Program-made: the position numbers and the translations under genes
In this document: positions 3,939 through 19,733 of the stretch, one piece after another
Numbering within the stretch: the first letter of the stretch is position 1
Layout of the letters: every line of letters begins with the position of its first letter
Assembly (NCBI GenBank): GCA_038747425.1
Contig: JBCDJV010000007.1
Span: 9,164-73,163, forward strand
Reading direction: 5' to 3'
Origin: Bacteroidota bacterium
GTDB lineage: Bacteria; Bacteroidota; Rhodothermia; Rhodothermales; JBCDJV01
Length of the DNA stretch: 64,000 nt
The notes under the pieces: generated by a model
What the model saw: only the letters and a program-made list of their open reading frames with translations
What the model was told of the DNA's origin: nothing
The model's database searches: none

Positions 3939-4861
3939 GTTTGGTGCCGCGCCCTGACTGAGGGGTGATGCACACCGCTGGGTATCCCCGTTCGGACTCG
4001 GCCTTCAGCACAGCCAAGGCTGTCCTGTTTGGCCGGGCCATGCCACGGGGCGCATCGACCGCTCATGACGAGCTGGGCCCAACGACGGGGACCCTCTGGC
4101 GTGCTAGCCCGCCGGGCGACGGAGACGAGCGCTCTGCTCAGCCCGTCCCGGTTGACACCTAGCCCTGCTACGCTCCGAGACCCTCGCGCCATGCAGGCGA
4201 GGTGGCGGCTTGGCCGTAGCTGCGGCGCACGCCACCCGACAGACTCGGCCTCTCCTGACTTCGACCGGAGTCAGCCTCCTTTTGAAGGATCCTACCCCAA
4301 GCGGGGCCCGGCGCTCTCCATGCGTCCGGGCCCCGCACTGCGTTGGAGCTTGGCCCGCGAACGCATTCGTCCGTCGCCGCTCTGCTCCGGTGATCAGAGG
4401 TGGCCTCTAGCGCCGGACCTGGGCGCATGGAGCAGACGGAGGCGGCACGCTGCTGGGCGGCTCAGCGGCCCCCGACCGACCACCCCGCACCCCCCCATGG
4501 GGCCGACTTGTGCCGGGCGTTACCGCATCCCTCTCAGGGCCCCAGCGTCCGTGGGCCCATGCGGCAAACCTGGGCGCCTCTCCGGAAACTATTGCCCTCC
4601 ACGGACAACCTCTCCGCCCCTTCAGCCAGGCCCTCAGCGCAGCGTCTGCTTAAGAAAGGTCCAGTCATAGCCGATATAGGAGGCGAGCATGCATCTGTAG
4701 GTGCCTTCTAGCACGTCCCGACCACTCGTTCTGACACCGTCAAGGGCCTCGTGTAGGTTGGCATCATCATTGAATATGCTTGCGTAACGCCCCCAATGGC
4801 ATCGCGCCCACACTGGGTGTTTATCTGTTCAACCTGTTTACCTATCACAGAGAGGGTCATC

Positions 4862-5065
4862 ATGGCTATCGAAAAGTCAGTCGCTTCCAGCAGCCTTGCT
4901 GAGGTCGTCGACCGCATCCTGGACAAAGGCATCGTGGTCGATGCCTACGCTCGCGTCTCCCTCGTGGGGATCGAGCTCATCGCCATCGAGGCGCGTGTCG
5001 TCGTCTCGGGCGTCGAGACGTACCTCAAGTACGCTGAGGCCATCGGCCTGACGGCCACGGCCTAA
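4862..5065 (+). CDS. gvpA: gas vesicle structural protein GvpA
   Basis: [63 protein letters not shown] is a canonical 67-aa GvpA. The ATG at 4862 lies inside track ORF 4796..5065. Confidence 0.97.
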
Positions 5066-5094
5066 GGCCTCGCGCCTACGCCATGGCGGAGGGA

Positions 5095-5173: not shown

Positions 5174-5740
5174 ATGTCACGTCCTTCTACTTCCTATCGC
5201 GAAGCCCTGCGTGCCGATGTAGCACGTCTGCTTGAGGACGTGGCCACGACTCGTAAGGCCCAGGCTGAGGCGCTACGCGCAGAGCGTACCGCGTTCACCG
5301 AAGCCCTGCGCACCTCGGTGTCCAGCGACCTGTCCTCCGAGCGCAGCCGCGTCAAAGACGAGGTCCAGTCGCTCCTGGAGGACATCCGAGCCGAACATGC
5401 GACCCGCCGGGACACCCTGCGCACCGCTCTGCGCACCTTCCGTACGGCGCTCCGCAACGAGCGCGGCAGCGCGTCGGCCTCGGCGCTGGAAGTGGCCTCG
5501 GAGATCGGACAGGCCGCGCCTGCTCCGGCCCCGCCGAGTCCGCCCGTCGAGGAAAACCTGCTTCGCATCAAAGGGATCGGGCCCAACACCCTGGAGCGCC
5601 TGCGTCAAGCGGGCATCCACTCCTTTGCTGACCTGGCGGCCAGCACCCCAGCCGACCTTCATCAGGCGCTAGGCGGCTACGCCAAGCTGATCAACGTGGA
5701 GGAGTGGCTCTCCGAAGCCCGCAGATACGCCCAATCCTAG
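5174..5740 (+). CDS. hypothetical protein with an internally duplicated helical N-terminal region and a C-terminal helix-hairpin-helix motif; sits in the position often held by gvpC
   Basis: ATG at 5174 within track ORF 5144..5740. It contains repeated EALRA/EALRT/TALRT motifs. DVARLLEDV...EALRT parallels EVQSLLEDI...TALRN about 47 residues later. The C-terminus LLRIKGIGPNTLERLRQAGIHSFADLA is a typical HhH (GIGP) motif. Confidence 0.7.
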   Translation: MSRPSTSYREALRADVARLLEDVATTRKAQAEALRAERTAFTEALRTSVSSDLSSERSRVKDEVQSLLEDIRAEHATRRDTLRTALRTFRTALRNERGSASASALEVASEIGQAAPAPAPPSPPVEENLLRIKGIGPNTLERLRQAGIHSFADLAASTPADLHQALGGYAKLINVEEWLSEARRYAQS

Positions 5741-5870
5741 GTCCCTCTGCCGATTCAGTCCGGCCGAAAAACAGCGTGATGACCCTCTCTCTTTTTTTGG
5801 CCCCCTGTATCTGCTAGACGAACCGCTAGCCTTCACTCCGCTCTTCCCGCTACGCACCCCGCTCGCCTCT

Positions 5871-6581
5871 ATGCACCTTGGTCAACGCAAGATTCGCTCG
5901 GCTGGCCGCTCCAGCGGCAGCATCGAGATCACCCTGCCCGTGCCTCTACAGGCCCTGGAGGGGGTGCCTTGTCGGATCAACCTACGGGACGGCGTCCGGC
6001 CGGAGGTGGTCCTCCAACCGGACCTCTCTGAGGCTCAGACCCTGTTCCAGACGCTCTGGTCGCACCTCCGCACGGGGCTGCGCTCCGTAGACGACATCGG
6101 CGACTTCGCGCTGAGCCAGTTCACGGTGGCCCTGCTGCCGGTGCGCTTCTGGCAGGAACGGCCGCCCCTCTTCTACACGGACGCCTTGCTGACCCTGCAT
6201 GGCACCGGCGATGAGCGCGCCGACGCCCTCACGCGCCTGTTGGCCGGTCTCGGCGTAGGGGCCGCTCAGGCCCTTGGCTTCAGCGGAGCCCTCGGCCTAG
6301 GCCTGGGCGATGCCCTGAGCTTCGTGGCCACAGGCCGCTCCGCCGGATGGGGCGCTGAGTTCGAACGCGGGTTGGCGCACCGTTTGTACTGGGGTGAGAC
6401 CGCACCCGCCTACACGCCCCTGGACGAGGCCTTCTGGCAGGAGGCGGCTCCGCGCCTGGTCCACCTGACCGACGTGTTCTGGTCCTGGCACACCGACCCC
6501 GATCGCTACGACACCGACCGTGAACGCTGGTACCGCGCCCTGACCGCCGAGATGCGCTACGCGCCCCTGCCGATTTCCTAA
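5871..6581 (+). CDS. hypothetical protein (236 aa), possible N-terminal AbrB/SpoVT-like swapped-hairpin domain
   Basis: The ORF lies in the operon orientation between gvpA and gvpN. The N-terminus RKIRSAGRSSGSIEITLPVPLQALEGVPCRINLRDGVRPEVVLQP resembles the AbrB/MazE pattern; this is a weak judgement by eye. Confidence 0.55.
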   Translation: MHLGQRKIRSAGRSSGSIEITLPVPLQALEGVPCRINLRDGVRPEVVLQPDLSEAQTLFQTLWSHLRTGLRSVDDIGDFALSQFTVALLPVRFWQERPPLFYTDALLTLHGTGDERADALTRLLAGLGVGAAQALGFSGALGLGLGDALSFVATGRSAGWGAEFERGLAHRLYWGETAPAYTPLDEAFWQEAAPRLVHLTDVFWSWHTDPDRYDTDRERWYRALTAEMRYAPLPIS

Positions 6582-6629
6582 CCCACGCGCCGCCTCTCGC
6601 GATGCCTTCAATCCCGCTGCCGTAACCCT

Positions 6630-7604
6630 ATGGATGTGCTAGACCCCGAAGCCCCCACTGCCGTGGCCGCCGCCGCCCCCGGCGCCATCCACGTCCAGCC
6701 GCGTCCCGACTTCGTCGAGACCCCGGCCGTGCAGGCGCTCACCGAGCGGTCCCTGACCTACCTGTGGGCGGGCTTTCCCATTCATTTTCGCGGACCCGCC
6801 GGGACCGGCAAGACCACGCTGGCTCTCCACGTGGCCGCACACATCGGCCGGCCCGTCATGTTCATGACAGGCGACGAAGAGCTGTCCTCGGCGGACCTCA
6901 TCGGGTCGGAGAGCGGGTACCGCTTCAAGCGGGTCGTGGACCGGTTCATCCACACCGTCACCAAGTACGAAGAAGATGCGACCCAGCGCTGGGTGGACCA
7001 ACGCCTCACCATTGCTTGTCGCCAAGGCTACACGCTCGTCTACGACGAGTTCACCCGCTCTCGGCCTGAGGCCAACAACCCGCTGCTGACGGTCCTGGAG
7101 GAACGCGTGCTGATCCTCCCCAAGACGAACCGGGAGGAGGCCTACATTCGGGTCCATCCTGAATTCCGGGCCATCTTTACCAGCAACCCGGAGGAATATG
7201 CCGGGGTGCACCGCTCCCAGGATGCCCTGTGCGACCGGATGGTGACCATCGACCTCGACTTCAGCGACCCGGACACCGAACGCTCGATCACCGTCTCGCG
7301 CTCGGGCATTACCGCCGATCGGGCCGAGCGCATCGTGCAGCTCGTGCGCGCCTTCCGAGACCAAGGCACCCCGATGCAACTGCCCACCCTGCGGGCCTGC
7401 ATCATGATCGCCCGGGTGGCCCACATGCAACAGATCGAGCCCGCCAGCACCGATGAGCGCTTCGTCCAGCTGTGCTACGACGTGCTGGCCTCCAAGACGA
7501 CCTCCACCATGGTCTCCGTCCCGGAGCGCCAGAAGGTCTACGACCAACTCCATCGCCTCATCCATCTACACTGCGACGCCCAGACGGCGCCCTCTAGCCT
7601 ATGA
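6630..7604 (+). CDS. gvpN: gas vesicle AAA+ ATPase GvpN
   Basis: Walker A FRGPAGTGKTTLALHVA and Walker B-like TLVYDEFTRSRPE. The length (324 aa) and overall pattern fit GvpN (AAA_5 type). It lies within the gvp cluster. Confidence 0.9.
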   Translation: MDVLDPEAPTAVAAAAPGAIHVQPRPDFVETPAVQALTERSLTYLWAGFPIHFRGPAGTGKTTLALHVAAHIGRPVMFMTGDEELSSADLIGSESGYRFKRVVDRFIHTVTKYEEDATQRWVDQRLTIACRQGYTLVYDEFTRSRPEANNPLLTVLEERVLILPKTNREEAYIRVHPEFRAIFTSNPEEYAGVHRSQDALCDRMVTIDLDFSDPDTERSITVSRSGITADRAERIVQLVRAFRDQGTPMQLPTLRACIMIARVAHMQQIEPASTDERFVQLCYDVLASKTTSTMVSVPERQKVYDQLHRLIHLHCDAQTAPSSL

Positions 7605-7960
7605 AACGTCCCCGTCCCCGCGGCATGCGCGACATCCGCACGGCGCAGAACCTGCTGAACCGATCCAAGCCTAGCGGCCGTGCGCAAGCCGTCACGCAAC
7701 TGGCCCGCCTCGAGCACGAGCGCATGCGCCTCGAACGCGAGATGAAGCTCTGGGCCCAGAAATACACCCAGACCAAGAACCGGCTGCACGGCGTCCTCAA
7801 ACAGCTGTCCGACCTGGAAAACCTGTCGGACGAGCTGGCCGCCCGCGAGGGCCTCACCCCGACCAACAAACAGCTGCGCAAGCTCGCCCAGAGCGGCCTG
7901 CCGTCACGCAAGCGGGCCAGCCACGATCCGTCCCCGGCCGACTTCACGTTCGAATACTAA
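7601..7960 (+). CDS. basic coiled-coil protein (119 aa), translationally coupled to gvpN; possibly GvpV-like
   Basis: Its start ATG overlaps the gvpN stop (ATGA at 7601-7604). The segment ARLEHERMRLEREMKLWAQKYTQTKNRLHGVLKQLSDLENL is heptad-like. The GvpV assignment rests only on my memory of a similar coiled-coil pattern. Confidence 0.6.
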   Translation: MKRPRPRGMRDIRTAQNLLNRSKPSGRAQAVTQLARLEHERMRLEREMKLWAQKYTQTKNRLHGVLKQLSDLENLSDELAAREGLTPTNKQLRKLAQSGLPSRKRASHDPSPADFTFEY

Positions 7961-7993
7961 CCCGGCGCTCCCGCGCCGCTACCCCGCACATCC

Positions 7994-8566
7994 ATGGCAG
8001 ACTCTGATAAGCAGAAGGACCCCCGCGACGGGATCCACGTCAACCTCGACCTCGGCTTCGGTGGCCTCTTCAAAGGCCTCACGGACATGGTAAACAACCT
8101 GACCGAGCTCTCCGAAAAGGCCGAACACCTCCAGCAAGAAGCCGGGGCTGACGGCGAGCGCACGTTCCGCTTCGACGGCCTCAACATCAACGGCCTGGGC
8201 AAAGACGCCGAAGGGGTGGTGGGCATCCGCATCCGCACCCTGGACGGCGGCCAGCCGGTCGTCGAGCGCTTCGGCAACATCCGGCCCACCGACGAAGGCC
8301 CCGAGGTGGCCGACGTGCGCGAGCCCCTCGTGGATGTGTTCGATGAGCCCACCGAGCTGCTGCTTGTGGCCGAGCTCCCCGGCGTCAGCGAATCCGACAT
8401 CAGCCTGCGCGTGGAGGACGACATCCTGATCCTCGAAACCGAAGGCGACCGCCGCTACGCCAAAGAGGTCTTGCTCCCGGCGGCCGTGGACGCCACCACG
8501 CTGCAGCACACCTACACCAACGGCATCCTGGAAGTCCGTCTCCAAAAAGCTACGCCAGACGCATGA
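7994..8566 (+). CDS. Hsp20/alpha-crystallin family small heat-shock protein (GvpH-like position)
   Basis: The C-terminal alpha-crystallin domain reads LLLVAELPGVSESDISLRVEDDILILETEGDRRYAKEVLLPAAVDATTLQHTYTNGILEVRLQK. Confidence 0.85.
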   Translation: MADSDKQKDPRDGIHVNLDLGFGGLFKGLTDMVNNLTELSEKAEHLQQEAGADGERTFRFDGLNINGLGKDAEGVVGIRIRTLDGGQPVVERFGNIRPTDEGPEVADVREPLVDVFDEPTELLLVAELPGVSESDISLRVEDDILILETEGDRRYAKEVLLPAAVDATTLQHTYTNGILEVRLQKATPDA

Positions 8567-9345
8567 GCACCCTCCCAGACCCCATGGCGGCTCCGGCCGT
8601 TGACACCGCTGGGCAGTACGTGTACTGCTTCATCCGCTCCTCCGAGCCCGTCACGTTCTCGTCGACTGGGATCGGCGAGCTGAAAGGCACGGTCCGCGCC
8701 ATCCCGTACCGCGACATCGCCGTGGTGGTGAGCGAATCGCCGGTGATGATCTACCCGAGCCGCCGCCGCAATATGATGCCGCACACGCGGGTCCTGGAGG
8801 AGGTGATGGCCACGCACACCATCCTGCCGGCCCGCTTTAGCACGGTGGTCCCCCCCGAGGACGACCTCGGCGAGGACATCATTGCACCCCGCTACGAGCA
8901 GCTCGACGGCCTCTTGCACGAGATGGACGGCAAGGTGGAGCTCGGCCTACGGGTGATGTGGCATGACGGCCTCGTCTTTCAGGAGATCGTGGAGGAGCAG
9001 GATGCCATCCGCGCCCTCCGCGATCAGCTGGTGGGCCGCTCGCCCGAGGAAACGCACTATGACCGCATGCGGCTCGGAGAGATGATCGAGGCCGCCATCG
9101 AGGGCAAGCGTGCCGCCGAGGCCGCCGCCTTGCTGGACCGCCTCCGTCCCTTCGCCGCCGATGTCCGGGAGAACGACGTCCTAGGGGATCGCATGGTGCT
9201 GAACACCGCCTTCCTCGTGGATCAAGCCCAGGTGCCGGCCTTCGACGCCGCCCTGGAGGCCATCGACGCTGAGCAGAGCCACCGGATGAGCTTCACCTAC
9301 GTCGGTCCCGTGCCCCCTTACAATTTCGTCAGCATTGTGCTGTGA
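8563..9345 (+). CDS. gvpF: gas vesicle protein GvpF/GvpL family (paralogue 1)
   Basis: The start overlaps the Hsp20 stop (ATGA). Family hallmarks are present: YVYCFIRS, DIAVVVSE, HTRVLEEVMATHTILPARFSTVV and a C-terminal GPVPPYNF. Confidence 0.88.
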   Translation: MSTLPDPMAAPAVDTAGQYVYCFIRSSEPVTFSSTGIGELKGTVRAIPYRDIAVVVSESPVMIYPSRRRNMMPHTRVLEEVMATHTILPARFSTVVPPEDDLGEDIIAPRYEQLDGLLHEMDGKVELGLRVMWHDGLVFQEIVEEQDAIRALRDQLVGRSPEETHYDRMRLGEMIEAAIEGKRAAEAAALLDRLRPFAADVRENDVLGDRMVLNTAFLVDQAQVPAFDAALEAIDAEQSHRMSFTYVGPVPPYNFVSIVL

Positions 9346-9349
9346 TGAC

Positions 9350-9601
9350 ATGGGCTTCTTCACCACGCTCCTGACCTTTCCCGTCTCCGGGCCACTGCAC
9401 GGGGTGCGATGGATCGCACAGCACATGGCCGAGCAGGCGGAGCAGGAGTTTTACGACCCCGCTGTCATCAAAGAGCAGCTCCGCGCCCTTGAATACAGCT
9501 ATGAGCTCGGCGAAGTCGACGACGACACCTTCGACGCCCTCGAAGACGCCCTCATGGAACGCCTTGAAGCCAGCCGCGCGCAGCCCAAGCGTACCCCCTG
9601 A
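9350..9601 (+). CDS. gvpG: gas vesicle protein GvpG
   Basis: MGFFTTLLTFPVSGPLHGVRWIAQHMAEQAEQEFYDPAVIKEQLRALEYSYELGEVDDDTFDALEDALMERL matches the GvpG pattern. The start could alternatively be 9335. Confidence 0.85.
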   Translation: MGFFTTLLTFPVSGPLHGVRWIAQHMAEQAEQEFYDPAVIKEQLRALEYSYELGEVDDDTFDALEDALMERLEASRAQPKRTP

Positions 9602-9631
9602 TCCAACCTTCTCGACCCAACCTCTGACGCC

Positions 9632-9892
9632 ATGATGAACGGACCCCAGGCCGCCCAGGCGGCCAAGCAGCAACTGATGGACCTCACCGGCCACCCCGCC
9701 GACAGCGTGTCGGCCATGCGCCGCGATGACGACGGCTGGGCCATCACGGTCGAGCTGGTCGAGCTCAAGCGGATCCCGGAGTCGTCTGATCTCCTGGCCA
9801 CCTACGAGGCCAGTGTCAACGACGAGGGCATCCTGATGACCTACCAACGCACCCGCCGCTACCAACGCCATCAGGTGATGGAAGCCGGCTGA
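9632..9892 (+). CDS. gvpO: gas vesicle protein GvpO
   Basis: LTGHPADSVSAMRRDDDGWAITVELVELKRIPESSDLLATYEASVNDEGILMTYQRTRRYQR matches the conserved GvpO core as I recall it. Confidence 0.82.
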   Translation: MMNGPQAAQAAKQQLMDLTGHPADSVSAMRRDDDGWAITVELVELKRIPESSDLLATYEASVNDEGILMTYQRTRRYQRHQVMEAG

Positions 9893-9979
9893 TGAATGGA
9901 GAATGGGACCTGGTGAGGGGCACGCCCCCCTTCACCAACCACCATTCATCGTTCACCACTCACCACTCTTTCCTTCTCC

Positions 9980-10336
9980 ATGCAGCATACCATCCAAGGC
10001 TCTAGCCTAGGCGACATCCTGGAGCGCGTGCTCGATAAGGGCATCGTGATCGCCGGGGATATCAGCATCTCAATCGCCGAGATCGAGCTGCTGCGTATCC
10101 GCGTGCGGTTGCTCGTAGCTTCGGTGGACAAAGCCATGGAGATCGGCATCAACTGGTGGGAGAGCGACCCCTTCCTGGCTCGGCGCGCCCGCACCCTGGA
10201 AGAGGAGAACAAAGAACTGATCGACCGGCTCCGGCGCCTAGAGACGGTGCTGCGTGACCGCTATCCCGAGACGGCCTCCCTGCTGGCCGCCACCACGCCT
10301 AACCCCGGTGCTCCCCGTGTCCCTGACCGACCCTAA
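9980..10336 (+). CDS. gvpJ: gas vesicle protein GvpJ (GvpA/J/M family)
   Basis: SLGDILERVLDKGIVIAGDISISIAEIELLRIRVRLLVASVDKAMEIGINWWESDP is a GvpA-like core with the longer C-terminal tail typical of GvpJ. Confidence 0.88.
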   Translation: MQHTIQGSSLGDILERVLDKGIVIAGDISISIAEIELLRIRVRLLVASVDKAMEIGINWWESDPFLARRARTLEEENKELIDRLRRLETVLRDRYPETASLLAATTPNPGAPRVPDRP

Positions 10337-10340
10337 CCCT

Positions 10341-12524
10341 ATGGCACCCACTGCGGACCCAGCAGACCCCGCGCCCGCCGCCGCCCCCGGCCCCTTGTCT
10401 CTGCGCGTAGCCGAGGCGCGTGCCAAAGACGTGGGCCGCGGCCTCGTGCGGGTGGATCCCGATGACCTGGCCCGCCTGGACGCCGCCATCGGCGACGTGG
10501 TCGAGATCACCGGCCAGACCACCACGGTGGCCCGCCTCATGCCGGCCTTCGCGGCGGAGCGCGGCCAAGCACTCGTCCAGATGGACGGCATCCTGCGCGG
10601 CAACGCCGACACCGGACTGGGCGAGACCGTGACCCTGCGCCGTGTGGAGGCGCCCGTGGCCCGCACCGTCACGCTCCAGGGCCCCGGCGCCGTCCGACGC
10701 GGCCAAGGCCGTCACTTGGCTCGGCTGCTGGATGGCCTCCCGGTGTGCCCAGGCGACCAGGTTCGCGTAGACCTCATCGGCACCCGCGCCGAGACTTTCC
10801 GCGTGACGCAGACCGCCCCGAGCGGCGCCGTCCGCATCGGCCCGACCACCACCGTGCGCGTTGAAAAACCCGCTCAGAAGGGACGCAAGACCCCCTCGGC
10901 CCCGCCGCCCGAGGCCATCACCTACGAAGACATCGGCGGGCTCGGCTCCGCGCTCCAGCGGATCCGCGAGATGATCGAGCTGCCGCTGCGCTACCCCGAA
11001 GTGTTTGACCACCTGGGCATCGACGCCCCGAAAGGGGTGCTGCTCTACGGCCCCCCCGGCACCGGCAAGACGCTGATCGCCCGGGCCGTGGCCCACGAAA
11101 CCAACGCCCACTTCATCGTGGTCAACGGCCCCGAGGTCATCGACAAGATGTACGGGGCCAGCGAGGCTCAGCTCCGCAAGCTGTTCGAAGAGGCGAGCCG
11201 CAAGGCCCCCTCCATCCTCTTCATCGACGAGCTAGACGCCATCGCCCCCAAGCGCGACGACCTCAGCGGCGACCGCCAGGTGGAGCGGCGGGTGGTGGCT
11301 CAGCTCTTGGCCCTCATGGACGGCCTCCAGAGCCGCGGCCACGTCATCGTGGTGGCCGCCACCAACCTCCCTGACAGCCTCGATCCCGCCCTCCGGCGTC
11401 CCGGTCGCTTCGACCGCGAGATCTCGATCGGGGTGCCGGACCGCGAAGGCCGGGCCCACATCCTGGAGATCCACAGCCGCGGCATGCCCCTGGCGGACGA
11501 CATCGACCTCGATCATCTGGCCGGGCGCACGCATGGCTACGTGGGCGCCGACCTGGAGGCCCTTTGCCGCGAGGCCGCCATGCGCGCCCTGCGCCGCCTG
11601 CTGCCCGACCTCGACCTGGCCAGCGCCTCCATTCCCTACGATCAGCTGGCCCAGCTCACCGTCACCGCCGCTGACTTCGAGACGGCTCTGGCTGAGATCG
11701 AACCGTCGGCCATCCGCGAGATCTTTACCGAGATCCCTAACGTCACCTGGGCGGACGTAGGCGGGCTCGACGCCGTGAAGGAGGTGCTGCAGGAGACCGT
11801 GCAGTGGCCCCTTCAGCACCCCGACCTGTTCGAGCGCGTGGGCACCACGCCGCCCCGGGGCATCTTGCTCCACGGCCCGCCCGGCACCGGCAAAACCCTG
11901 CTGGCCAAGGCAGCGGCCCGCGAGAGCGAGGTCAACTTCATCTCCGTGAAGGGCCCTGAGCTGCTCTCGCAGTGGGTGGGCGCCTCCGAGAAAGGCGTAC
12001 GCGAGGTGTTTCGCAAAGCCCGTCAGGCGGCGCCCTGCCTCATCTTCCTGGACGAGGCCGACGCGCTGATCCCGCGCCGGACGGGGCAGCACAACCCCGT
12101 GACCGAGCGCGTTGTCAACCAGTTCCTGGCGGAGATGGACGGCATCGAGGCACTGAACGGCGTGCTGGTGCTGGCCGCTACCAACCGGCCGGACCTCATC
12201 GACCCTGCGTTGCTGCGCCCGGGCCGCTTCGAGCTTCAGATCGGCCTCGAGGCCCCCGATGCGGTGGGGCGGCGCGCCATCCTGGAGGTGCACACCCGCC
12301 GGCAACCGCTGGCGGCCGATGTGGACCTGGAGGCCCTGGCCACCCGCACGGAGGGGCTGACCGGCGCTGAGCTGGCGGGCCTCTGCCGCGAGGCCGCCAT
12401 GCGCGCCCTGCGCGCCCACGTACATCGGGAGGCTAGCGCCGATGAGCCGCTGGCGGTGAGTGGTATGGATTTTGACGCCGCACTCGACACGCTCCGTGCA
12501 TCCTCTACGCCTTCATCCTCCTGA
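10341..12524 (+). CDS. Cdc48/p97/VCP-type double-ring AAA+ ATPase embedded in the gvp operon
   Basis: ATG at 10341 within track ORF 10254..12524, 5 nt after the gvpJ stop. It has a Cdc48 N-domain-like region ([26 protein letters not shown]...VEITG). D1 has [17 protein letters not shown] and [10 protein letters not shown]2 has [17 protein letters not shown] and LIFLDEADA. The GRFD arginine-finger regions occur in both modules. Confidence 0.92.
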
Positions 12525-12528
12525 CCCC

Positions 12529-13581
12529 ATGCCGCTCTACCTGCATGGCCTGACCCCCGTGGGCGGGCCCGCGCTGTACCGCGTCCCCGACGCCGACGGC
12601 CCCGTCTACACCATCGAGCACCAGGGCATGGCCGCCGTGGTGCGCCCCACGGCCCAGCGCACGTACCAGCACCTCGAACGCCGCGAGGCGCTGCTTCACC
12701 TGGTGCTGCACCAGCGGGTGGCCGAGGCCATCCAGGCCGAGACCCCCCTCCTGCCCGTCCAGTTCGGCACCGTGCTGGACAACGAAGAGCAGGTGCGCAT
12801 GCTGCTGAGCCTGGGAGCCGATCGTTTTGCAGAAGCACTCCGGCAGTTGGACGGCCTCGTGCAGATGGAGATCACCGTGCTCTGGGATCTGGAGCACGTG
12901 TTTGCCGAGATCCGCCATGAGCCCGCAGTGGCGGCCCTCCAGCACAACCTCACGACGTGGCCAGCGGACGAGCAAGAGGCCGGTCGCGTCCAGCTCGGCC
13001 AGATTGTAAAAGAGCGCCTGGAGTACCGCCGCGCCCGCCTCAAAGCGCCCATCGACCAAGCTCTTCAGGCCGTAGCCACGGCGTCGGAGGCGCTACCGAT
13101 CCTGGACGATCGGATGGTCACGGGTCTGACGCTGCTGCTCAACGATCACCAGGAAGACGAGCTCGATGACGCGCTGACCACCCTCGACGCCGCCCATGGG
13201 GATCTGCTGACGTTCAAGTGCGTGGGACCCATGGCGCCGCACCGCTTTGCCCAGGTTCGGGTGGAGATGGTGGACGGGGCTATCCTCAACCAAGCCCGGG
13301 CCTTGCTGCGCCTGCCAGCGGGCCCGACCACGCTGGCCGACGTCAAGCGCGCCTACCGCCTCCGAGCCGGCGAGCTGCACCCAGACCATAATCCGTCCAC
13401 AGACGAAGCCACGATGCAGGCCCTGCATGATGCCTTCACGCTCATCACCACCTTCGTGGAAGGTCGGCTGGGCGCGCCCGCGCCTGGTGAGGCGCCGCAC
13501 TGCTCACTCGATCTGGCGGCTCAGCCTCACCTCCTGTACCATCTGGACCTGTCGGTACGCCGCTCAGCCTTGGCGGCCTAG
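12529..13581 (+). CDS. GvpF/GvpL family protein (paralogue 2) fused to a C-terminal DnaJ J-domain
   Basis: ATG at 12529, 5 nt after the Cdc48 stop. The N-terminal part carries the GvpF/L pattern (LYLHGL, GMAAVVRP, HQRVAEAIQAETPLLPVQFGTVL, GPMAPHRF). The C-terminal part LADVKRAYRLRAGELHPDHNPSTDEATMQALHDAFTLI is a J-domain, with the HPD tripeptide at nt 13378-13386. Confidence 0.88.
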   Translation: MPLYLHGLTPVGGPALYRVPDADGPVYTIEHQGMAAVVRPTAQRTYQHLERREALLHLVLHQRVAEAIQAETPLLPVQFGTVLDNEEQVRMLLSLGADRFAEALRQLDGLVQMEITVLWDLEHVFAEIRHEPAVAALQHNLTTWPADEQEAGRVQLGQIVKERLEYRRARLKAPIDQALQAVATASEALPILDDRMVTGLTLLLNDHQEDELDDALTTLDAAHGDLLTFKCVGPMAPHRFAQVRVEMVDGAILNQARALLRLPAGPTTLADVKRAYRLRAGELHPDHNPSTDEATMQALHDAFTLITTFVEGRLGAPAPGEAPHCSLDLAAQPHLLYHLDLSVRRSALAA

Positions 13582-13634
13582 CCCAGGTCCAACGCTGTCT
13601 TTCTCTTTCGCCTGCTAGCCATCCGTTTGCCTCC

Positions 13635-13841
13635 ATGGAGACCCAGATTCAACACCTCATGGCCCAGCTTCGGGATCAACTGGTCACGCTGTCTCAGGAT
13701 GAGGTCCAGCAGATCGTCCAGGAAGCCCGTACCGAGGCCATGGCCGAAGCCAGAGAGATGCTGAAAGAGCACCTCTTGAAGTCGATCCTCGAGCAGGCCG
13801 TGGAGGCCTCTCAGCCTGCGCTGCATAGCGCCACGTCCTGA
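13635..13841 (+). CDS. small helical hypothetical protein (68 aa) inside the gvp operon
   Basis: The ORF is in the operon orientation with plausible codon usage. Its segment QQIVQEARTEAMAEAREMLKEHLLKSILEQAVE resembles the N-terminus of the next ORF. Confidence 0.5.
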   Translation: METQIQHLMAQLRDQLVTLSQDEVQQIVQEARTEAMAEAREMLKEHLLKSILEQAVEASQPALHSATS

Positions 13842-13850
13842 CCGGAAGCC

Positions 13851-14747
13851 ATGAACCACGACGTACAACGTATTCTCGAGACCGTGCTGAGCCAGCATGG
13901 CGGCGATATCGATGCGTTCATCGAATCGTGCCGTCAGGAGGTCCTGCGTGACCTCAAGGAACGCCTGAAGGGCGAGATGCGCGCCTCGATCTTTGCTCAG
14001 ATCCGGGCGGGTCTGGACGAGGGGGGCACGCCCCCGCCCCCAACGCCGCCGCCGTCTACGCGGCCCATCGCCCTGCCGCCCCCGGCTCCGTCCGCCTCGT
14101 TCCGTACCGAGTCCATGCGGGCAGCTCTTTCCGAGACCCCGGAAGAATCGTCCGCGCCCCCGCCTCCACCCGAGGCGCACGCCGAGACAGAGCACACCCA
14201 GGAGACACCCGACCACGGGTCTCACGACCATGCGCCGCCCGGCCATGTGCCGCCCGACCATGGGGCGCACGCCGAGGAGACCGCTCCCCCAGAGGGACCC
14301 GGCGACCGCGAGCCGTCCGTTGAGGACGTCCGTGTTGAGGCCGTCCACGCCCAGGGGGCTCAGCCAGGCTTGCCCGACTCCGAGGAGCCGCCTGCGGAGC
14401 TGATGGCCGCCGGCGAGCCTTCCACGGAAGGCGTCTACACCCAGGAGGTGTACACCGCGCCAGACCCGGCCCCTGAGGGCGTCCCAGCGGACCTGGATGC
14501 CGAGATCAGCGACCTGTACGCCGCCGAAACTCGTCCGCCTGCACACCCGTGGGTCCATGCGGCCACGCAGACGCCGGCTCCGAGCGATCCGCAGGAAGAC
14601 GTACCCGCTCACCCCACGGCCGACGACGAGCTCGACGACGACATTCTGCGGGAGATTGCCGCCATCCGGCAGCAGATCTCGAAGAATGAGCAGCTCCTGA
14701 GTCAGCTCAAGCCTTTCTTCGCGGAGGAACATCCGCCGAACTCCTGA
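13851..14747 (+). CDS. hypothetical acidic Pro/His/Glu-rich, probably disordered protein (298 aa) inside the gvp operon
   Basis: It has a structured-looking N-terminus (ILETVLSQHGGDIDAFIESCRQEVLRDLKERLKGEM) and C-terminus (DDILREIAAIRQQISKNEQLLSQLKPFF). These flank a low-complexity stretch (PPPPTPPPS...HTQETPDHGSHDHAPPGHVPPDHGAHAEE). The stop lies 5 nt before the next gene. Confidence 0.6.
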   Translation: MNHDVQRILETVLSQHGGDIDAFIESCRQEVLRDLKERLKGEMRASIFAQIRAGLDEGGTPPPPTPPPSTRPIALPPPAPSASFRTESMRAALSETPEESSAPPPPPEAHAETEHTQETPDHGSHDHAPPGHVPPDHGAHAEETAPPEGPGDREPSVEDVRVEAVHAQGAQPGLPDSEEPPAELMAAGEPSTEGVYTQEVYTAPDPAPEGVPADLDAEISDLYAAETRPPAHPWVHAATQTPAPSDPQEDVPAHPTADDELDDDILREIAAIRQQISKNEQLLSQLKPFFAEEHPPNS

Positions 14748-14751
14748 ACGC

Positions 14752-15852
14752 ATGACGAGGCCTGTGCGGGTGGACCGCCTACCGGACATCGAACGCTCCC
14801 CCGCCACCCCGGCCTCTCGCCTGCACAGCCAAGCTCTAAGCGGCGTGGACATGTACCCTGATCGATCCATCGACCAAGCCGCGCTCGTAGACGACGTGCT
14901 GTCGTTGCTTCGGCATCGGCTGCAGCCGCTTCTGATGGAGGGCTTCCTGCAGGCCGCGCTGGCGCACGTCCAGGCCGAGGCCGTACCGCCCAGCTCCCCG
15001 AGCGAGGCACCCGCCCTCCAGGGCGACGGGGCCGCCGCCATGGGGCTCTATGTGCTCGGCTTGGTACCTCGCGGTGCTCATCTGGTGCTGCCGGCCTCGG
15101 GTATGGAGCCTGGCCACCCCGTGACCACCAAGGCTTACCGGGGGCTGGAGGCCGTGGTGTGCCCCGTGACGCTGGAGGCCTTCGGACCCGATGCACAGCC
15201 CGCCCAGACTAACGACCTGACGTGGCTGGAGGCCATGGCCCAGCGCCACCAGCGCTTGCAGGAAGAGGTGCGCCGCGAGGGCACCACGCTGCTGCCCATG
15301 CGGTTTGGCACCATCTGCCACGACGAGCCGGGCCTGCTCACCTTTCTGGAGGCCCACCACGACGACTTCTTGCACACCTTGAGTGCCCTGCGCGGCATGC
15401 AGGAGTGGGGGCTCAAGGTGTTCTGCGATGACACCCGCTTCAACGAGCACGTCGAGCTCGCGCCTGACGTCCCTTCGCCGGATGGAGCCTCCGAGGGTAC
15501 CGCCTACTTCCTGCGCAAGAAGCACGCACAGGCCCGGGCCCAGGCGTACGCCCAACGCTTGGCGCTCTGCCTGGATGAGATCGACCATACCCTGCAGGCC
15601 CATGCTCAGGAAGCCGTGCGCAACGAGCCGCAGGAACCACGGTGGTCCGGCCATACGCTCCCCAACGTGCTGAATGCAGCCTACCTGGTGGGACGGGACG
15701 ACGAGCCGGCGTTCCTGCAGGCCGTCGACCGCTTGGTGGCCACCTATGCCCCGCTCGGACTCGAGGTGGTGCGCACAGGGCCTTGGCCGCCCTACCACTT
15801 TGCCCGGCTCGATGCGGACTCTTCCACCGACATTGTGCCCCCTTCGGCCTGA
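14752..15852 (+). CDS. GvpF/GvpL family protein (paralogue 3)
   Basis: GLYVLGLVPRG, GLEAVVCPV, HQRLQEEVRREGTTLLPMRFGTI and a C-terminal GPWPPYHF are present. The true start may be the ATG at 14851. Confidence 0.82.
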   Translation: MTRPVRVDRLPDIERSPATPASRLHSQALSGVDMYPDRSIDQAALVDDVLSLLRHRLQPLLMEGFLQAALAHVQAEAVPPSSPSEAPALQGDGAAAMGLYVLGLVPRGAHLVLPASGMEPGHPVTTKAYRGLEAVVCPVTLEAFGPDAQPAQTNDLTWLEAMAQRHQRLQEEVRREGTTLLPMRFGTICHDEPGLLTFLEAHHDDFLHTLSALRGMQEWGLKVFCDDTRFNEHVELAPDVPSPDGASEGTAYFLRKKHAQARAQAYAQRLALCLDEIDHTLQAHAQEAVRNEPQEPRWSGHTLPNVLNAAYLVGRDDEPAFLQAVDRLVATYAPLGLEVVRTGPWPPYHFARLDADSSTDIVPPSA

Positions 15853-15864
15853 CCTCGCTGCCCC

Positions 15865-16119
15865 ATGCCTACGCGCCCCCCCTCTGCCTTTTCGCTTGAG
15901 CAGGAAGTCACTCTGCTGGACCTGCTGGACCGGATCCTGGACAAAGGCATCGTGATCCAGGGCGACGTGACCATCTCCGTGGCCGACGTCGACCTCGTGT
16001 ACCTGGGCCTCAAGGCTGTCCTGGCTTCCGTGGACACGGTGGACCGGATGCGGGCCGTGTACCTGCCGCCTGAGAGCGCTCTGGCGCTCAAGCCCGCCGC
16101 CCTGCTGGACCTCGTCTAG
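15865..16119 (+). CDS. small GvpA/J/M/S-family gas vesicle protein (GvpS-like by position before gvpL/gvpK)
   Basis: [43 protein letters not shown] is a GvpA-like core in an 84-aa protein. Confidence 0.85.
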   Translation: MPTRPPSAFSLEQEVTLLDLLDRILDKGIVIQGDVTISVADVDLVYLGLKAVLASVDTVDRMRAVYLPPESALALKPAALLDLV

Positions 16120-16167
16120 CGCAGCCCCGTTTTCGTGCCCGGCCCGTGGGCGGACCGCCCCCGACGC

Positions 16168-16854
16168 ATGCTATATCTCTACGCCTTCTGCCGTCCACCG
16201 CTGCCGCCTGACGTGCCCGGGCTGCACAAGACGATGCTACGCGCCATCCCCGTGGGGGCCCTGGTGGCCGCCGTCAGCGACCTGGACACCCCGCCCTCTG
16301 CCGGCGCCCCCCATCTCTGGGCCCACGAGCACGCGGTGGAGACGCTCATGCAGACACGCCCAGTCCTCCCGGTGCGGTTCGGCACCATGCTGCACGATGC
16401 CGAGCACCTCCAGGCCGTGACGGCCCCACAGGAGGCGGCCATGCACGAGGCGTTGGCGCGCGTGGATGGACACGTCGAGCTCAGCGTGCGCGCCCTGGCG
16501 GCCGAGCCCCCCTTGCCGCCGGCGGAAGCGCCCCCGCGCACAGGCACAGACTACCTGCGCCAGCGTCAGGCCCAACTCAGCGCCGAACAGGCCGATCATC
16601 AGCAGGCCCAACAGCGAGCGGCCGCGTTGCATGCCCAGCTGGCCCCCCTGGCGGCCGACAGCACCTACGAGGCGCGCCGTACGGCCCGCATGGTGCTCAC
16701 CGGGGCGTACCTGGTCCCCGCTGACCAACAAGACGCCTTCCAAGACGCCGTGGCGGCGCTGCAGACCCAGCACCCTGACCTGGCATTCCTCTGCACAGGC
16801 CCATGGCCTCCGTACCACTTCACTCGCCTCGCCCTGACCACCCCTACGCCATGA
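16168..16854 (+). CDS. GvpF/GvpL family protein (paralogue 4)
   Basis: ATG at 16168 (the track starts at GTG 16135). MLYLYAFCRPP, GALVAAVSDL, HEHAVETLMQTRPVLPVRFGTML and a C-terminal GPWPPYHF are present. Confidence 0.82.
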   Translation: MLYLYAFCRPPLPPDVPGLHKTMLRAIPVGALVAAVSDLDTPPSAGAPHLWAHEHAVETLMQTRPVLPVRFGTMLHDAEHLQAVTAPQEAAMHEALARVDGHVELSVRALAAEPPLPPAEAPPRTGTDYLRQRQAQLSAEQADHQQAQQRAAALHAQLAPLAADSTYEARRTARMVLTGAYLVPADQQDAFQDAVAALQTQHPDLAFLCTGPWPPYHFTRLALTTPTP

Positions 16855-17222
16855 CCTCGACGAACCCGCCCTCCGCAGCCTCGCCCAAGATCCTCAGCGA
16901 GCAGGCCGACCTCCAGGCCTTCGTGGCCGAACTGGACCCGGTGCGCCAGGGGATCCTGCCCCCGCGCGTGGCCCTGGACCCCGACTCCGCCGATCAGGGG
17001 TTGGCCAAGCTCGTCCTCACCCTGATCGAACTGCTGCGCCAGCTGATGGAGCGTCAAGCGGTGCGCCGCATGGATGCGGGCAGCCTGACCGATGACGAAG
17101 TGGAGCGCCTGGGGCTCACCCTCATGAAGCTGGAAGGCCGGATTAAAGAGCTGCAGGCCCTTTTTGGTCTGGAAGAGGAAGAACTGAACCTGAGCCTGGG
17201 CCCCCTCGGCCGCTTGCTCTGA
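16851..17222 (+). CDS. gvpK: gas vesicle protein GvpK
   Basis: The start overlaps the preceding stop (ATGA at 16851-16854). LAKLVLTLIELLRQLMERQAVRRMDAGSLTDDEVERLGLTLMKLEGRIKEL is the conserved GvpK core. Confidence 0.9.
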   Translation: MTSTNPPSAASPKILSEQADLQAFVAELDPVRQGILPPRVALDPDSADQGLAKLVLTLIELLRQLMERQAVRRMDAGSLTDDEVERLGLTLMKLEGRIKELQALFGLEEEELNLSLGPLGRLL

Positions 17223-17345
17223 AACAATGCCCCCGGTACGGACACCCACATTCATGAAGAGGCGGTGGGGCCCTGCGGCAGCTCGCAACCAACCGAGGGC
17301 TCCATCGTTACAAGTTTCCCGATCGATACACGGACTTGTTGGCGC

Positions 17346-19733
17346 ATGGACATGGCTACGACGTTCCCGTTCACCCATCGACTGAGCCTGACGCCACTAG
17401 CGGCGTTCTGGCGCAGCAAGGCGGCCGACAAGGCCGATCCGCTCCACCAGTTTGCCCGCCAGATCGCCCGTGACCTGGACCGGGCCCCCGTCTTGGAGGG
17501 CCCCCTCGACGAGGTGTCGGTCCTCGATCCGCACTGGCCGCTCCTGGAGCGCATGATGATGGCCATCACCCCGCCCTCCTCCAAAGAGATCGCGGCGGTG
17601 GCCGTGAGCCAGCCCTTCTCGATGCGGCCGTTCTACACGACGCCGGCCTTCGACCGGCTGGGCATGAACCACACGTCTGAGGACGAGGTCGCCGCCGCGC
17701 TCAGCATGAGCACGGAGGCCCTGATGAGCCTGAAGGCCCTGCAAGCCTACTTCTGGGTACTCATCGAATGCTACGGCCTCGACCTGGACTTCGACCAGCA
17801 GTTCCCGCTCGTCTTGCCCATCACCGACGAAGAGACGGGCCTGCCGCGCTACTACAAGATCCGCATCAACCCCAGCTTCTGCGCCCTGCGCCACGAGGGC
17901 GACCTTCCGCCGCTCTCCCCAGCCGATCTGAACCGGCTCCTCGAAGAGCCCACCAACCTCGACGTTTGGAAAACGCTCCTGCCCCCAGACCAGTTTGTCT
18001 TCGAGGGCATCGTCATCTACGAGGGCATCGACATCACGGAGCAGCACCTGCTGTCCAAGCTCAAGGACGACCTGCTGAAGAAGGGGTCGATGACCACGCC
18101 TGGGCAGGTGAGCCATCTGCAGGAGCGCCTCCGCTCGCTGCTCCGCAAGCCGGACCTGGAGCTCGGCTTCATGGCCCTCACCTTTGGCGACCTGGAGATG
18201 GTGAGCGGAGCCACACCCATCGGGCGCAGCCTGCTGCTAGCCGATGGGCAGATGCCTGCCTGCCCGCTTCGCCATCAGTCCACGTATGCCAAAGCCCTCA
18301 AGGAAAGCAGAACGCAGCTCTTCCACGACCTGCAGACCTACGAGACCCAGAGTGGATTTGAGACCCTCTTGATGGAGCAGGGCTTCCGCAACCTGCTCCT
18401 GGCCCCCCTCTTCGATGGCGAACAGGTGATCGGCTTCCTGGAGCTGGCCTCGCCGAACCGGGGCGATATCAACGCCTTCAACGCGCGGCTGCTGGACGAT
18501 GTAGCGTCCGTCTTTGCCACGGCCATGTCACGGACGTTGGAGGACCGAGAAGACCGGGTGCAGGCCATCATCAAGGAAGAATACACGGCGCTCCACCCGG
18601 TGGTGGAGTGGCGCTTCCGCGAGGCCGCCCTGGCCCGTCTGGAGCGCATGGAGCGCGGCCACCGGGGCGAAGCCGAGTCCATCGTCTTCGAAGGGGTGCA
18701 CCCCCTCTACGGGCTGGCCGACATCCGTGGCTCCTCCACACGGCGCAATGCGGCCATTCAGGCGGACCTGGTGGAACAGGTGGGCTTGGCGCTCCTCGTC
18801 ATCGTGGAGGCCAGCACCCATCGCCACCTCCCCATCTTGGACGCGCTGGGCTACCGCCTGGGCCAGTACATCAGCGACATCGGGACCGGCCTCAGCTCCG
18901 GCGATGACCAGAGCGCGCTCGCCGTGCTGCGTCAAGAGCTGGAGCCGCTGTTCGACCACCTGGCCACCTTCGACCCCAGCGTCGAAGCTCGCATCCGGGC
19001 CTACAAAGACGCGCTGGACCCGGAGCTGGGGGTGGTCTACCGCCAGCGTAAGGCCTTCGAGGACAGCGTCATGCTGATCAACGACACGATCGGGCAGTTT
19101 ATCGATCAGCAGGAGGCCACCGCCCAGGGCATGTTCCCCCACTACTACGAGCGGTACAAGACCGACGGGGTGGACTACAACATCTACATTGGGCAGTCGC
19201 TCCTGCAACGGGGAGACTTTGACCCGATCTACTTGCGTAATCTGCGCCTCTGGCAGCTGATGATGACGTGCGGCGTGGCCTGGGAGATGGAGACGCTCAA
19301 GCCCTCCCTCCCCATGGAGCTGGACGTGGCGCACCTCATCCTCGTGCAGGACATCCCGCTCTCCATCCGCTTCCGCATGGACGAGAAGCAGTTCGATGTG
19401 GATGGCGCCTACAACATCCGCTACGAGATCGTCAAGAAGCGTATCGACAAGGCGCGCATCAAGGGCACCGGAGAGCGGCTCACGCAGCCTGGCTACCTGG
19501 CCATCGTGTATTCTCAGCCCGAGGAAGCCCGCGAGTATCTTCAGTACCTGGACTACCTGTCGGCCGCCAGCTACACGGAAGGCGAGATCGAGCACCTGGT
19601 CCTCGAAGACCTGCAGGGGGTGCAGGGCCTCCGCGCCCTCCGCGTCGCGATCGCGTCCACGAGCCCCGACGACTACTCGTCAATCGGCGCCGACCGGACG
19701 ATGCACATCGTGCAAACGCTGACAAACGCGTGA
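17346..19733 (+). CDS. large GAF-domain-containing protein (about 795 aa), last gene of the plus-strand gvp block; candidate sensor/regulator
   Basis: ATG at 17346 within track ORF 17265..19733. The central segment GFRNLLLAPLFDGEQVIGFLELASPNRGDINAFNARLLDDVASVFATAMSRT is GAF-like. I do not recognise the flanking N- and C-terminal regions. Confidence 0.75.
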   Translation: MDMATTFPFTHRLSLTPLAAFWRSKAADKADPLHQFARQIARDLDRAPVLEGPLDEVSVLDPHWPLLERMMMAITPPSSKEIAAVAVSQPFSMRPFYTTPAFDRLGMNHTSEDEVAAALSMSTEALMSLKALQAYFWVLIECYGLDLDFDQQFPLVLPITDEETGLPRYYKIRINPSFCALRHEGDLPPLSPADLNRLLEEPTNLDVWKTLLPPDQFVFEGIVIYEGIDITEQHLLSKLKDDLLKKGSMTTPGQVSHLQERLRSLLRKPDLELGFMALTFGDLEMVSGATPIGRSLLLADGQMPACPLRHQSTYAKALKESRTQLFHDLQTYETQSGFETLLMEQGFRNLLLAPLFDGEQVIGFLELASPNRGDINAFNARLLDDVASVFATAMSRTLEDREDRVQAIIKEEYTALHPVVEWRFREAALARLERMERGHRGEAESIVFEGVHPLYGLADIRGSSTRRNAAIQADLVEQVGLALLVIVEASTHRHLPILDALGYRLGQYISDIGTGLSSGDDQSALAVLRQELEPLFDHLATFDPSVEARIRAYKDALDPELGVVYRQRKAFEDSVMLINDTIGQFIDQQEATAQGMFPHYYERYKTDGVDYNIYIGQSLLQRGDFDPIYLRNLRLWQLMMTCGVAWEMETLKPSLPMELDVAHLILVQDIPLSIRFRMDEKQFDVDGAYNIRYEIVKKRIDKARIKGTGERLTQPGYLAIVYSQPEEAREYLQYLDYLSAASYTEGEIEHLVLEDLQGVQGLRALRVAIASTSPDDYSSIGADRTMHIVQTLTNA

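Follow-up and report, generated by a model that had tools for sequence, protein, structure and literature searches.

A GvpF-type gas-vesicle protein fused to a J-domain in a Bacteroidota gvp operon and in related clusters

Gene and domain layout

The gene described here belongs to a gas-vesicle (gvp) operon in a 64,000-nucleotide stretch, hereafter the window, of contig JBCDJV010000007.1 from a Bacteroidota metagenome-assembled genome (MAG). The gvp genes of the window (gvpA, N, H, F, G, O, a gvpJ-like gene and K) all lie on the plus strand, from 4796 to 17222, and among them the gene at 12529..13581 (+) encodes a GvpF/L-type protein that continues into a J-domain. This fusion, first proposed in a first-pass annotation made from the sequence, is borne out: both domains lie in one continuous frame, which opens with an ATG at 12529, closes with a stop codon ending at 13581 and encodes 350 residues without an internal stop. 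A longer frame could open at GTG 12460, but we preferred the ATG because the GTG start overlaps the upstream gene and does not agree with the N-termini of the homologues (MxxxYLYG). The product is identical to NCBI entry MEM1125598.1, named 'GvpL/GvpF family gas vesicle protein [Bacteroidota bacterium]' and derived from a Bacteroidota MAG.

The possibility that a frameshift or a mis-assembly had joined two separate genes is excluded. The gene is a single open frame starting 4 nucleotides past the upstream stop, and homologues of matching length in many phyla have the same fusion: those of 80 genomes and of about 140 protein-cluster representatives, 340-370 residues long, align collinearly with it as far as the C-terminus.

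Residues 3-241 (12535..13251) match the Pfam family GvpL_GvpF (PF06386) with 158.8 bits (E=3.1e-46; cut-off 23.6) over profile positions 2-244 of 245. The J-domain occupies residues 250-313 (13276..13467), as delimited by the helices of an AlphaFold2 model and recognised by a family profile searched against the PDB, by Foldseek and by PF00226, the last with a score under its cut-off in the window protein and over it in orthologues. Its histidine-proline-aspartate (HPD) tripeptide, H284-P285-D286, lies in the loop between helices II and III and is encoded by cac cca gac at 13378..13386, precisely where the first-pass annotation had placed it. The J-domain is not, as that annotation also had it, the extreme C-terminus of the protein: 37 residues trail it, among them a beta-strand at residues 334-341 (13528..13551), predicted by AlphaFold2 with a predicted local distance difference test score (pLDDT) above 84 and conserved in the family with the motif TLL[IV]x[IV]xRR. 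In the family alignment, columns 335-339 of this region are conserved hydrophobic positions and R345 is conserved.

Besides weak matches at chance level, Pfam and NCBIfam recognise only the GvpL_GvpF domain and the J-domain segment in this protein. Full-length DnaJ models match it solely over the HPD region (12-15 bits), and neither a zinc finger nor a DnaJ C-terminal domain was found with the two collections, G/F-rich regions not being scored separately. By domain composition, therefore, this is a class-C (type III) J-domain protein.

The AlphaFold2 model, built on a 141-sequence alignment, has a pLDDT of 94.4 and a predicted template-modelling (TM) score of 0.85. Residues 1-248 adopt the two-lobed alpha+beta fold of GvpF, and the top ranks of a Foldseek search against the PDB are held by the GvpF crystal structures 4QSG (Microcystis aeruginosa) and 6L5D (Anabaena PCC 7120), with E-values around 1e-14 (range 3e-14 to 4e-12), a root-mean-square deviation (rmsd) of 3.4-4.5 A over about 245 columns and target-normalised TM scores of 0.73-0.78. 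The body thus shares its fold and its Pfam family with these proteins and, like the haloarchaeal and Bacillus GvpF and GvpL accessory genes, its gene sits in a gvp operon with gvpG, gvpO, gvpJ and gvpK. Unlike the solved GvpF chains, which are 237-244 residues long, it adds about 100 C-terminal residues that make up the J-domain and the strand.

The C-terminal domain and the family that carries it

The C-terminal domain is a genuine J-domain, as orthologues, a family profile and the modelled fold all indicate. Searching with the window protein alone, phmmer retrieved two orthologues, P0002 and P0003, which show 32-36% identity to it in a collinear alignment covering 87-89% of the query; in both, PF06386 is accompanied by PF00226 above its cut-off (31.9 and 41.9 bits). 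A three-way alignment of these proteins shows no variation in the HPD or in the A-Y-R of helix II that flanks it. We then built a profile from the last 105 or so residues of 26 members, with the window sequence at the top, and searched the PDB with it. It gave 67 matches at E<=1e-3, and the 60 listed are all J-domains or proteins containing one. The best match is DNAJA3 (E=5.5e-16), and the J-domain of E. coli DnaJ in its complex with DnaK (5NRO_B) is matched at E=1.4e-14. With the window C-terminus alone as query, 21 of the 24 PDB matches are J-domain chains, the best at E=0.012.

In the AlphaFold2 model, helices I (250-259), II (269-283) and III (293-313) are arranged with the HPD in the loop between the last two, and confidence is 96-98 across the domain. 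Foldseek matches this part of the model to 6RZY_A (probability 1.00, rmsd 2.8 A over 63 columns), to the CbpA J-domain 3UCS_C (probability 0.98, rmsd 2.3 A over 60 columns) and to HSJ1a, 2LGW (probability 0.95). A chance occurrence of the HPD tripeptide was considered as well and is ruled out by the profile, fold and conservation evidence.

Several features of the window protein itself are weak or divergent, and they weigh against the Hsp70-linked role proposed below. PF00226 aligns to residues 267-298 with 21.2 bits (E=3.2e-4) against a gathering cut-off of 27.8 and, given the last 102 residues alone, reaches 23.7 bits (E 5e-5), still below the cut-off; the alignment ends at profile position 45-49 of 63. 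Taken alone, then, the window sequence suggests a J-domain without reaching the threshold, so that the Pfam scan that had been suggested as a check confirms the GvpF/L part outright and detects the J-domain only below its cut-off. The AlphaFold2 model has no separate helix IV after residue 313: the long helix III (21 residues) runs into a linker and then into strand 334-341. We therefore describe the domain as a three-helix variant, the fourth helix being treated as non-essential to the core formed by helix II, the HPD and helix III. The window J-domain is also among the more divergent of the family. It reads YRLRA where the family has YRRLA (a swap at L278/R279), two residues are missing from the loop that follows the HPD, and others are inserted, namely P263 and four residues at 340-343 before the terminal RR.

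These lineage-specific changes, and a PF00226 score that is the weakest among those tested (21-24 against 32-42 bits), could mean that the J-domain is decaying or already non-functional in this genome, leaving an ordinary GvpF/L paralogue. We regard this as highly improbable, since the HPD and the core residues A256, L260, Y276, A280, L299, A302 and I306 are intact, the domain is modelled with the high confidence given above, and the frame stays open up to the conserved C-terminal strand.

The same architecture proved to be widespread when we looked for it elsewhere. An exhaustive HMMER search with a three-sequence profile against 1.84 billion representatives returned 33,701 GvpF/L-family matches, 620 of them at E<=1e-30. 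Nearly all of the best 150 are 330-390 residues long and aligned through the J-domain region. Together with P0002 and P0003 these form a set of 152 proteins, of which 127 have an HPD after residue 200; most of the others are fragments or belong to an HPD-less subgroup discussed below. The GvpF plus J architecture is common to at least about 130 representative clusters at 50% identity.

Conservation was read from the 141 representatives of the family alignment. About 90% of them retain the HPD residues (H in 125, P and D in 127 each), position 273 of helix II is K or R in 117 and position 277 is R in 87, and the helix III core (F/M296, L299, A302, L306) is retained. Cysteines recur just past helix III, at C310 (47 of 141) and C309 (21 of 141), and at C325, before the terminal strand, in 28 of 141; the window protein itself has V310 and C325.

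A scan of one genome per GTDB species, using a profile of 12 closer sequences, identified 343 relatives. The locus counts given here and below refer to the best 80 of these, picked by similarity to the query. Chloroflexota contribute 44 loci (Anaerolineae, Chloroflexia including Oscillochloris, Dehalococcoidia and Ktedonobacter), Alphaproteobacteria 10 (including Hyphomicrobium, Rhizomicrobium and Pseudovibrio) and Planctomycetota 4, and single genomes come from Nitrospirae, Nitrospinae, NC10, Ignavibacteria, Verrucomicrobiota, Desulfobacteraceae and several candidate phyla. The archaeon Candidatus Methanoperedens is also present. The open reading frame (ORF) is classed as J-fused at 76 of the 80 loci, and at 74 of these 76 it has the HPD, the two exceptions being one ORF cut at a contig end and one with HKD; at the other four loci the matched ORF also bears a J-domain.

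One member comes from a cultured, gas-vacuolate bacterium, Octadecabacter arcticus 238, where the gene lies on plasmid pOA238_160. Its product, WP_015497776.1 (360 residues, containing '...AYHRLARKSHPD...'), is labelled in RefSeq as 'GvpL/GvpF family gas vesicle protein' only. Some members bear the JGI/IMG name 'Gas vesicle synthesis protein GvpL/GvpF/DnaJ domain', and the domain pair has therefore already been flagged automatically.

The window operon and its relatives each encode four proteins of the GvpF/L fold. A J-domain hidden Markov model built from the family has 82 matches in one GvpF/L class and none among the roughly 180 members of the other three classes at the same loci. In a neighbour-joining tree of 247 GvpF-fold domains, from which the J-domain had been trimmed (no bootstrap; loci chosen by query similarity), the J-bearing sequences form one pure clade (79 of 79). 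This points to a single origin of the fusion, confined to one paralogue. The sister group of the J-bearing clade is the canonical GvpF-type paralogue (8563-9345 in the window) and not the GvpL type, so that 'GvpF-J' is a better label than the 'GvpL-J' under which the fusion had first been noted, and we use it below. Unlike GvpF and GvpL proper, GvpF-J misses the NCBIfam equivalog cut-offs (GvpL NF045778, 53.2 against 200 bits; cyanobacterial GvpF NF052351, 52.9 against 350 bits) and forms a separate clade beside the canonical GvpF of its operon. With scores of about 53 bits, it is therefore neither a GvpF nor a GvpL in the strict sense.

The gvp operon and Hsp70 genes of related clusters

The cluster begins with gvpA (4796..5065), which encodes the major shell protein and was identified by phmmer and by PRK09371 (120.7 bits, cut-off 100). 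The AAA+ ATPase gene gvpN follows at 6630..7604 (TIGR02640, 370.6 bits, cut-off 266.8), and then gvpH at 7994..8566, which encodes an Hsp20-type small heat-shock protein (PF05455 GvpH, PF00011 HSP20, PF17886 ArsA_HSP20). Next come the canonical GvpF-type paralogue, which has no J-domain (8563..9345; PF06386, 230.6 bits; best NCBIfam model, cyanobacterial GvpF), gvpG (9335-9601; PF05120), gvpO (9632-9892; PF05800) and a gvpJ-like gene of the GvpA family (9980-10336; PF00741; best NCBIfam model, halo_gas_GvpJ). Between gvpA and gvpN lie two ORFs (5144-5740 and 5871-6581, both +), one with a helix-hairpin-helix/DUF4332 C-terminus and the other of 236 residues and no family; related loci likewise have about 2 kb of unassigned sequence there.

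The gene directly upstream of the fusion, at 10341..12524 (+), encodes a Cdc48-family double AAA+ ATPase (TIGR01243 CDC48, 895.9 bits, cut-off 802.65) with the Pfam domains CDC48_N and CDC48_2 and two copies each of AAA and AAA_lid_3. Its ORF opens at GTG 10254, and the likely start is ATG 10341, 4 nucleotides past the stop of the gvpJ-like gene; its TGA (12522-12524) precedes the ATG of the fusion gene by 4 nucleotides. A Cdc48-like gene lies immediately 5' of the J-fused gene at 48 of 76 loci and somewhere in the locus at 64 of 76. The gene for the Cdc48-family ATPase is closely coupled to its neighbours and forms an intrinsic part of this gvp operon, as it does in most relatives.

Downstream of the fusion gene are two plus-strand ORFs that match no Pfam or NCBIfam family, one of 68 residues (13635-13841), with homologues at the equivalent position in loci L014 and L024, and one of 298 residues (13851-14747), rich in proline and acidic residues. 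In two other loci, from Anaerolineae and Chloroflexia (L005:11074-13035 and L013:11097-13076), the interval that separates the J-fused gene from the following GvpF/L gene contains a gene of about 655 residues; by eye, its first 400 residues contain two GGKGGVGKTT Walker-A-type motifs, like a tandem ArsA/Get3 ATPase. The window has the two unrelated ORFs at this position instead. ArsA-like ATPases and Hsp20 in gvp operons were noted in 2010 (PMC2963123).

The cluster is completed, still on the plus strand, by genes assigned with Pfam and NCBIfam: a GvpL-like paralogue (14752-15852), a small GvpA-family gene (15865-16119), the fourth GvpF/L paralogue (16135-16854) and gvpK (16803-17222). Most related loci have these genes in identical order. 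The GvpL-like protein has an N-terminal extension of about 95 residues that matches no family, its GvpL_GvpF domain covering residues 98-351 (Pfam). The resulting order, N-H-F-G-O-J-Cdc48-FJ-FL-A'-FL-K, is near-identical in Chloroflexota and in several Alphaproteobacteria. Directly after gvpK, on the same strand, 17265-19733 encodes an 822-residue protein whose sole recognisable domain is a GAF domain (about 331-423), and for which the related loci yielded no homologue; in some relatives (L088, L092), PAS/GAF histidine kinases flank the gvp cluster.

DnaK-family genes recur in related clusters. We found one in 11 of them (L049, L051, L054, L058, L061, L072, L076, L084, L088, L093 and L090), inside the cluster or at its edge and on the same strand as the gvp genes. 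Seven of these (L049, L051, L054, L058, L061, L072 and L076, from Chloroflexota, Desulfobacteraceae and Planctomycetales) belong to the 80 genome loci and combine the DnaK-like gene with an HPD-bearing fusion. In the HPD-less subgroup, an HSP70-family gene is present in all four contexts that extend far enough, after the last small GvpA-like gene. Three of these genes encode 522-594 residues (L084:5456-7024, L088:14866-16578, L093:5997-7781), the fourth being a partial ORF at the end of its context (L090:9488-9733, E=3e-24). A Cdc48-like gene comes after the HSP70-family gene in L084 and L088.

The DnaK-like proteins of these clusters score 614-864 bits on DnaK models, several of them short of the 822.55 bits that TIGR02350 requires. 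Their genes have no GrpE or DnaJ gene as neighbour, and in L076 and L072 further gvp-type Hsp20 genes come after the DnaK-like gene. Because of the divergent scores, the missing GrpE and DnaJ neighbours and the additional Hsp20 genes, the pattern appears to be better explained by dedicated DnaK paralogues than by the chance proximity of a housekeeping operon.

Outside the cluster, the window contains a ClpC-type Hsp100 gene (50438-53245; Clp_N, two AAA modules, UVR motif, ClpB_D2-small) 37 kb away, which is probably a housekeeping gene. On the minus strand, 20663-21376 encodes a PycTM-type protein (a Pycsar effector with two transmembrane segments), adjoined by an ORF of 354 residues (21391-22455, -) with no Pfam or PADLOC match; the two may form a defence pair with an unrecognised cyclase. 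A CHU_C type IX secretion domain encoded at 48131-49858 is in line with the Bacteroidota label of the MAG.

Proposed role in gas-vesicle biogenesis

J-domains stimulate ATP hydrolysis by Hsp70 through their HPD loop and the basic face of helix II. In class-C J-proteins such as HscB, auxilin, DjlA and Pam18, a second domain brings Hsp70 to one particular client or site. GvpF-J, with its HPD-bearing J-domain and a specialised second domain, resembles this class (HscB/Jac1 with IscU, auxilin with clathrin, DjlA, Pam18, Zuotin). The closest analogy in logic is auxilin, which delivers a J-domain to a self-assembling protein lattice, clathrin. Unlike the known class-C proteins, GvpF-J has the GvpF fold as its putative targeting module, and we found no report of this fold as partner domain of a J-protein. 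Its J-domain also differs from this set in being C-terminal, in having no separate helix IV and in being pinned to the body by a strand, as predicted.

What the GvpF-fold body might bind can be approached from GvpF itself. In PMC7688916, GvpF is described as the direct partner of GvpA, and GvpL as a hub for the other accessory proteins; GvpF has also been proposed as a chaperone of GvpA2 that prevents proteotoxic species (PMC11445434). By analogy, the body of GvpF-J would be a client- or site-binding module that holds GvpA, or a minor shell protein resembling it, by its hydrophobic part; alternatively, it could dock on the accessory Gvp complex. The C-terminal strand would staple the J-domain to this body, leaving the HPD loop to be offered to ATP-bound DnaK/Hsp70. 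ATP hydrolysis would then be triggered and Hsp70 would clamp onto the adjacent Gvp client, so that an aggregation-prone shell protein might be kept competent for assembly, or the energy of ATP used for its insertion or extraction. Candidate partners would be the small heat-shock protein GvpH, GvpN, the translationally coupled Cdc48-like unfoldase and, as Hsp70, a DnaK encoded elsewhere in the genome.

We consider it fairly probable that GvpF-J acts through Hsp70 in gas-vesicle biogenesis. Most likely, judging from domain content, conservation and gene neighbourhood, it would be a class-C J-domain co-chaperone dedicated to this process that hands GvpA-type clients to Hsp70. The data establish which domains are present, that the HPD is conserved, that the fusion arose once, that it is syntenic with the Cdc48-like gene and that DnaK-like genes recur in related gvp clusters; the stimulation of Hsp70, the identity of the client and the assembly step affected we infer.

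Besides the divergence of the window J-domain described above, three observations weigh against this proposal. The first is that Pfam detects no Hsp70 (dnaK), grpE or dnaJ gene among the large ORFs of the 64-kb window, and a phmmer search of all window ORFs with a cluster-encoded Hsp70 likewise gave no match; the partner Hsp70 must therefore be a DnaK encoded outside the window. The second is that a canonical GvpF is already present in the operon, so the client of GvpF-J may not be GvpA. The third is that about 13 of the 152 representatives have lost the HPD and kept the fold. The predicted model of one of them, P0110 (pLDDT 91.7), has the three helices and the terminal strand, and still matches solved J-domains (2DN9, probability 1.00; 6IWS, 0.99). 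Retention of the fold after loss of the HPD implies some HPD-independent role.

Could the J-like domain then serve mainly as an adaptor or structural element for the Cdc48-like unfoldase, for example by docking on its N-domain, with the HPD as an inconsequential relic and no activation of Hsp70? The close coupling of the two genes in the window, their adjacency or co-occurrence at most loci and the three-helix fold and C-terminal strand of the HPD-less subgroup are what such a role would lead one to expect. However, the HPD residues are kept in about nine-tenths of the representatives across many phyla, which argues for selection on the Hsp70 interface, and it is precisely in the HPD-less subgroup that the cluster always encodes an Hsp70 of its own. 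In the alphaproteobacterial loci the Cdc48-like gene stands apart from the fusion, after gvpK, and none is present in the 19 kb examined of the Octadecabacter plasmid cluster. To our knowledge, moreover, there is no case of a J-domain working with an ATPase other than Hsp70. We therefore judge a role mainly as Cdc48 adaptor to be quite improbable.

J-like proteins that lack the HPD and pair with specialised or atypical Hsp70s are known (Pam16 with Pam18; Zuotin with Ssz1 in the ribosome-associated complex). The HPD-less subgroup resembles these pairs in keeping a J-like fold and in having its own cluster Hsp70 in all four contexts. The likeness stops short of the window protein, which retains its HPD, and among the relatives the pairing is suggested by gene neighbourhood alone.

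A different division of labour would keep Hsp70 and replace assembly by quality control. GvpF-J, GvpH and the Cdc48-like ATPase would then act as a disaggregase-like triad that dissolves misassembled GvpA aggregates or collapsed vesicles and returns the subunits to the pool. The operon does bring together a small heat-shock protein, a J-domain and a double-ring AAA+ unfoldase, a set that mirrors the disaggregation system of small heat-shock proteins, Hsp70/J-protein and Hsp100. The comparison with IbpA/B, DnaK/DnaJ and ClpB extends to some relatives that add a DnaK-like gene to these three components. It differs in that the AAA+ protein here belongs to the Cdc48 family (TIGR01243) and not to ClpB, that the presumed clients are shell proteins instead of stress-denatured ones and that cooperation would be hypothetical. 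Cdc48-type ATPases have no counterpart of the M-domain that couples ClpB to DnaK. The gene is also placed among the core assembly genes and is conserved equally with them. Recycling would fit the finding that unchaperoned GvpA forms proteotoxic species (PMC11445434), and nothing in the sequence separates assembly from disassembly. On these grounds, we think it unlikely that recycling is the main role of the protein.

Returning to a role in assembly, the dedicated co-chaperone could be extended into a four-part, ATP-driven chaperone machine composed of GvpF-J, the coupled Cdc48-like unfoldase, the small heat-shock protein GvpH and an Hsp70 from the host or from the cluster. Such a machine would deliver, insert or extract GvpA-family subunits, with Hsp70 as an obligatory, energy-supplying part, and in the HPD-less subgroup the J-like domain and its own Hsp70, a short protein in each of the three complete cases, would have become a stable pair by co-evolution. 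We judge this extended scheme to be less likely than not.

How new is this architecture? The first-pass annotation knew of no described GvpL-J fusion, and as far as publications go this holds: no paper in the open-access literature that we searched assigns a J-domain, DnaJ, DnaK or Cdc48 to a gas-vesicle cluster. A large survey of J-domain proteins (PMC10410713) says nothing of Gvp in its main text, the mentions of DnaJ in PMC12848028 and PMC2270826 are irrelevant to a gas-vesicle J-domain, and the Octadecabacter genome paper lists the gvp genes and leaves the J-domain unremarked. The fusion is not unique, however, since it belongs to a large family. Absent from the literature found, the GvpF-J architecture had nevertheless already been flagged by the automatic annotation of IMG. 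It joins two known kinds of protein, the GvpF/L accessory proteins and the class-C J-proteins, and creates no new category, and the window copy is an ordinary member of its family. Nor is the result startling in kind, because chaperone-type genes in gvp clusters were already known.

The questions that it touches are nonetheless open ones in gas-vesicle biology: how the hydrophobic GvpA stays soluble, how it enters the growing vesicle and which energy source is used. Crystal structures of GvpF/L proteins did not explain their function in assembly (PMC11445434). A conserved J-domain on a GvpF-type paralogue, accompanied by an adjacent Cdc48-like unfoldase, by a small heat-shock protein in the operon and by DnaK-like genes in some related clusters, leads to a concrete and testable hypothesis, namely that Hsp70 is recruited to the assembly complex. 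GvpF-J would thus offer a direct and cheap experimental handle on both the chaperoning of shell proteins and the energetics of assembly. Gas-vesicle clusters are moved into E. coli and mammalian cells to serve as acoustic reporters. Transplanted clusters of the GvpF-J type might require a compatible Hsp70.

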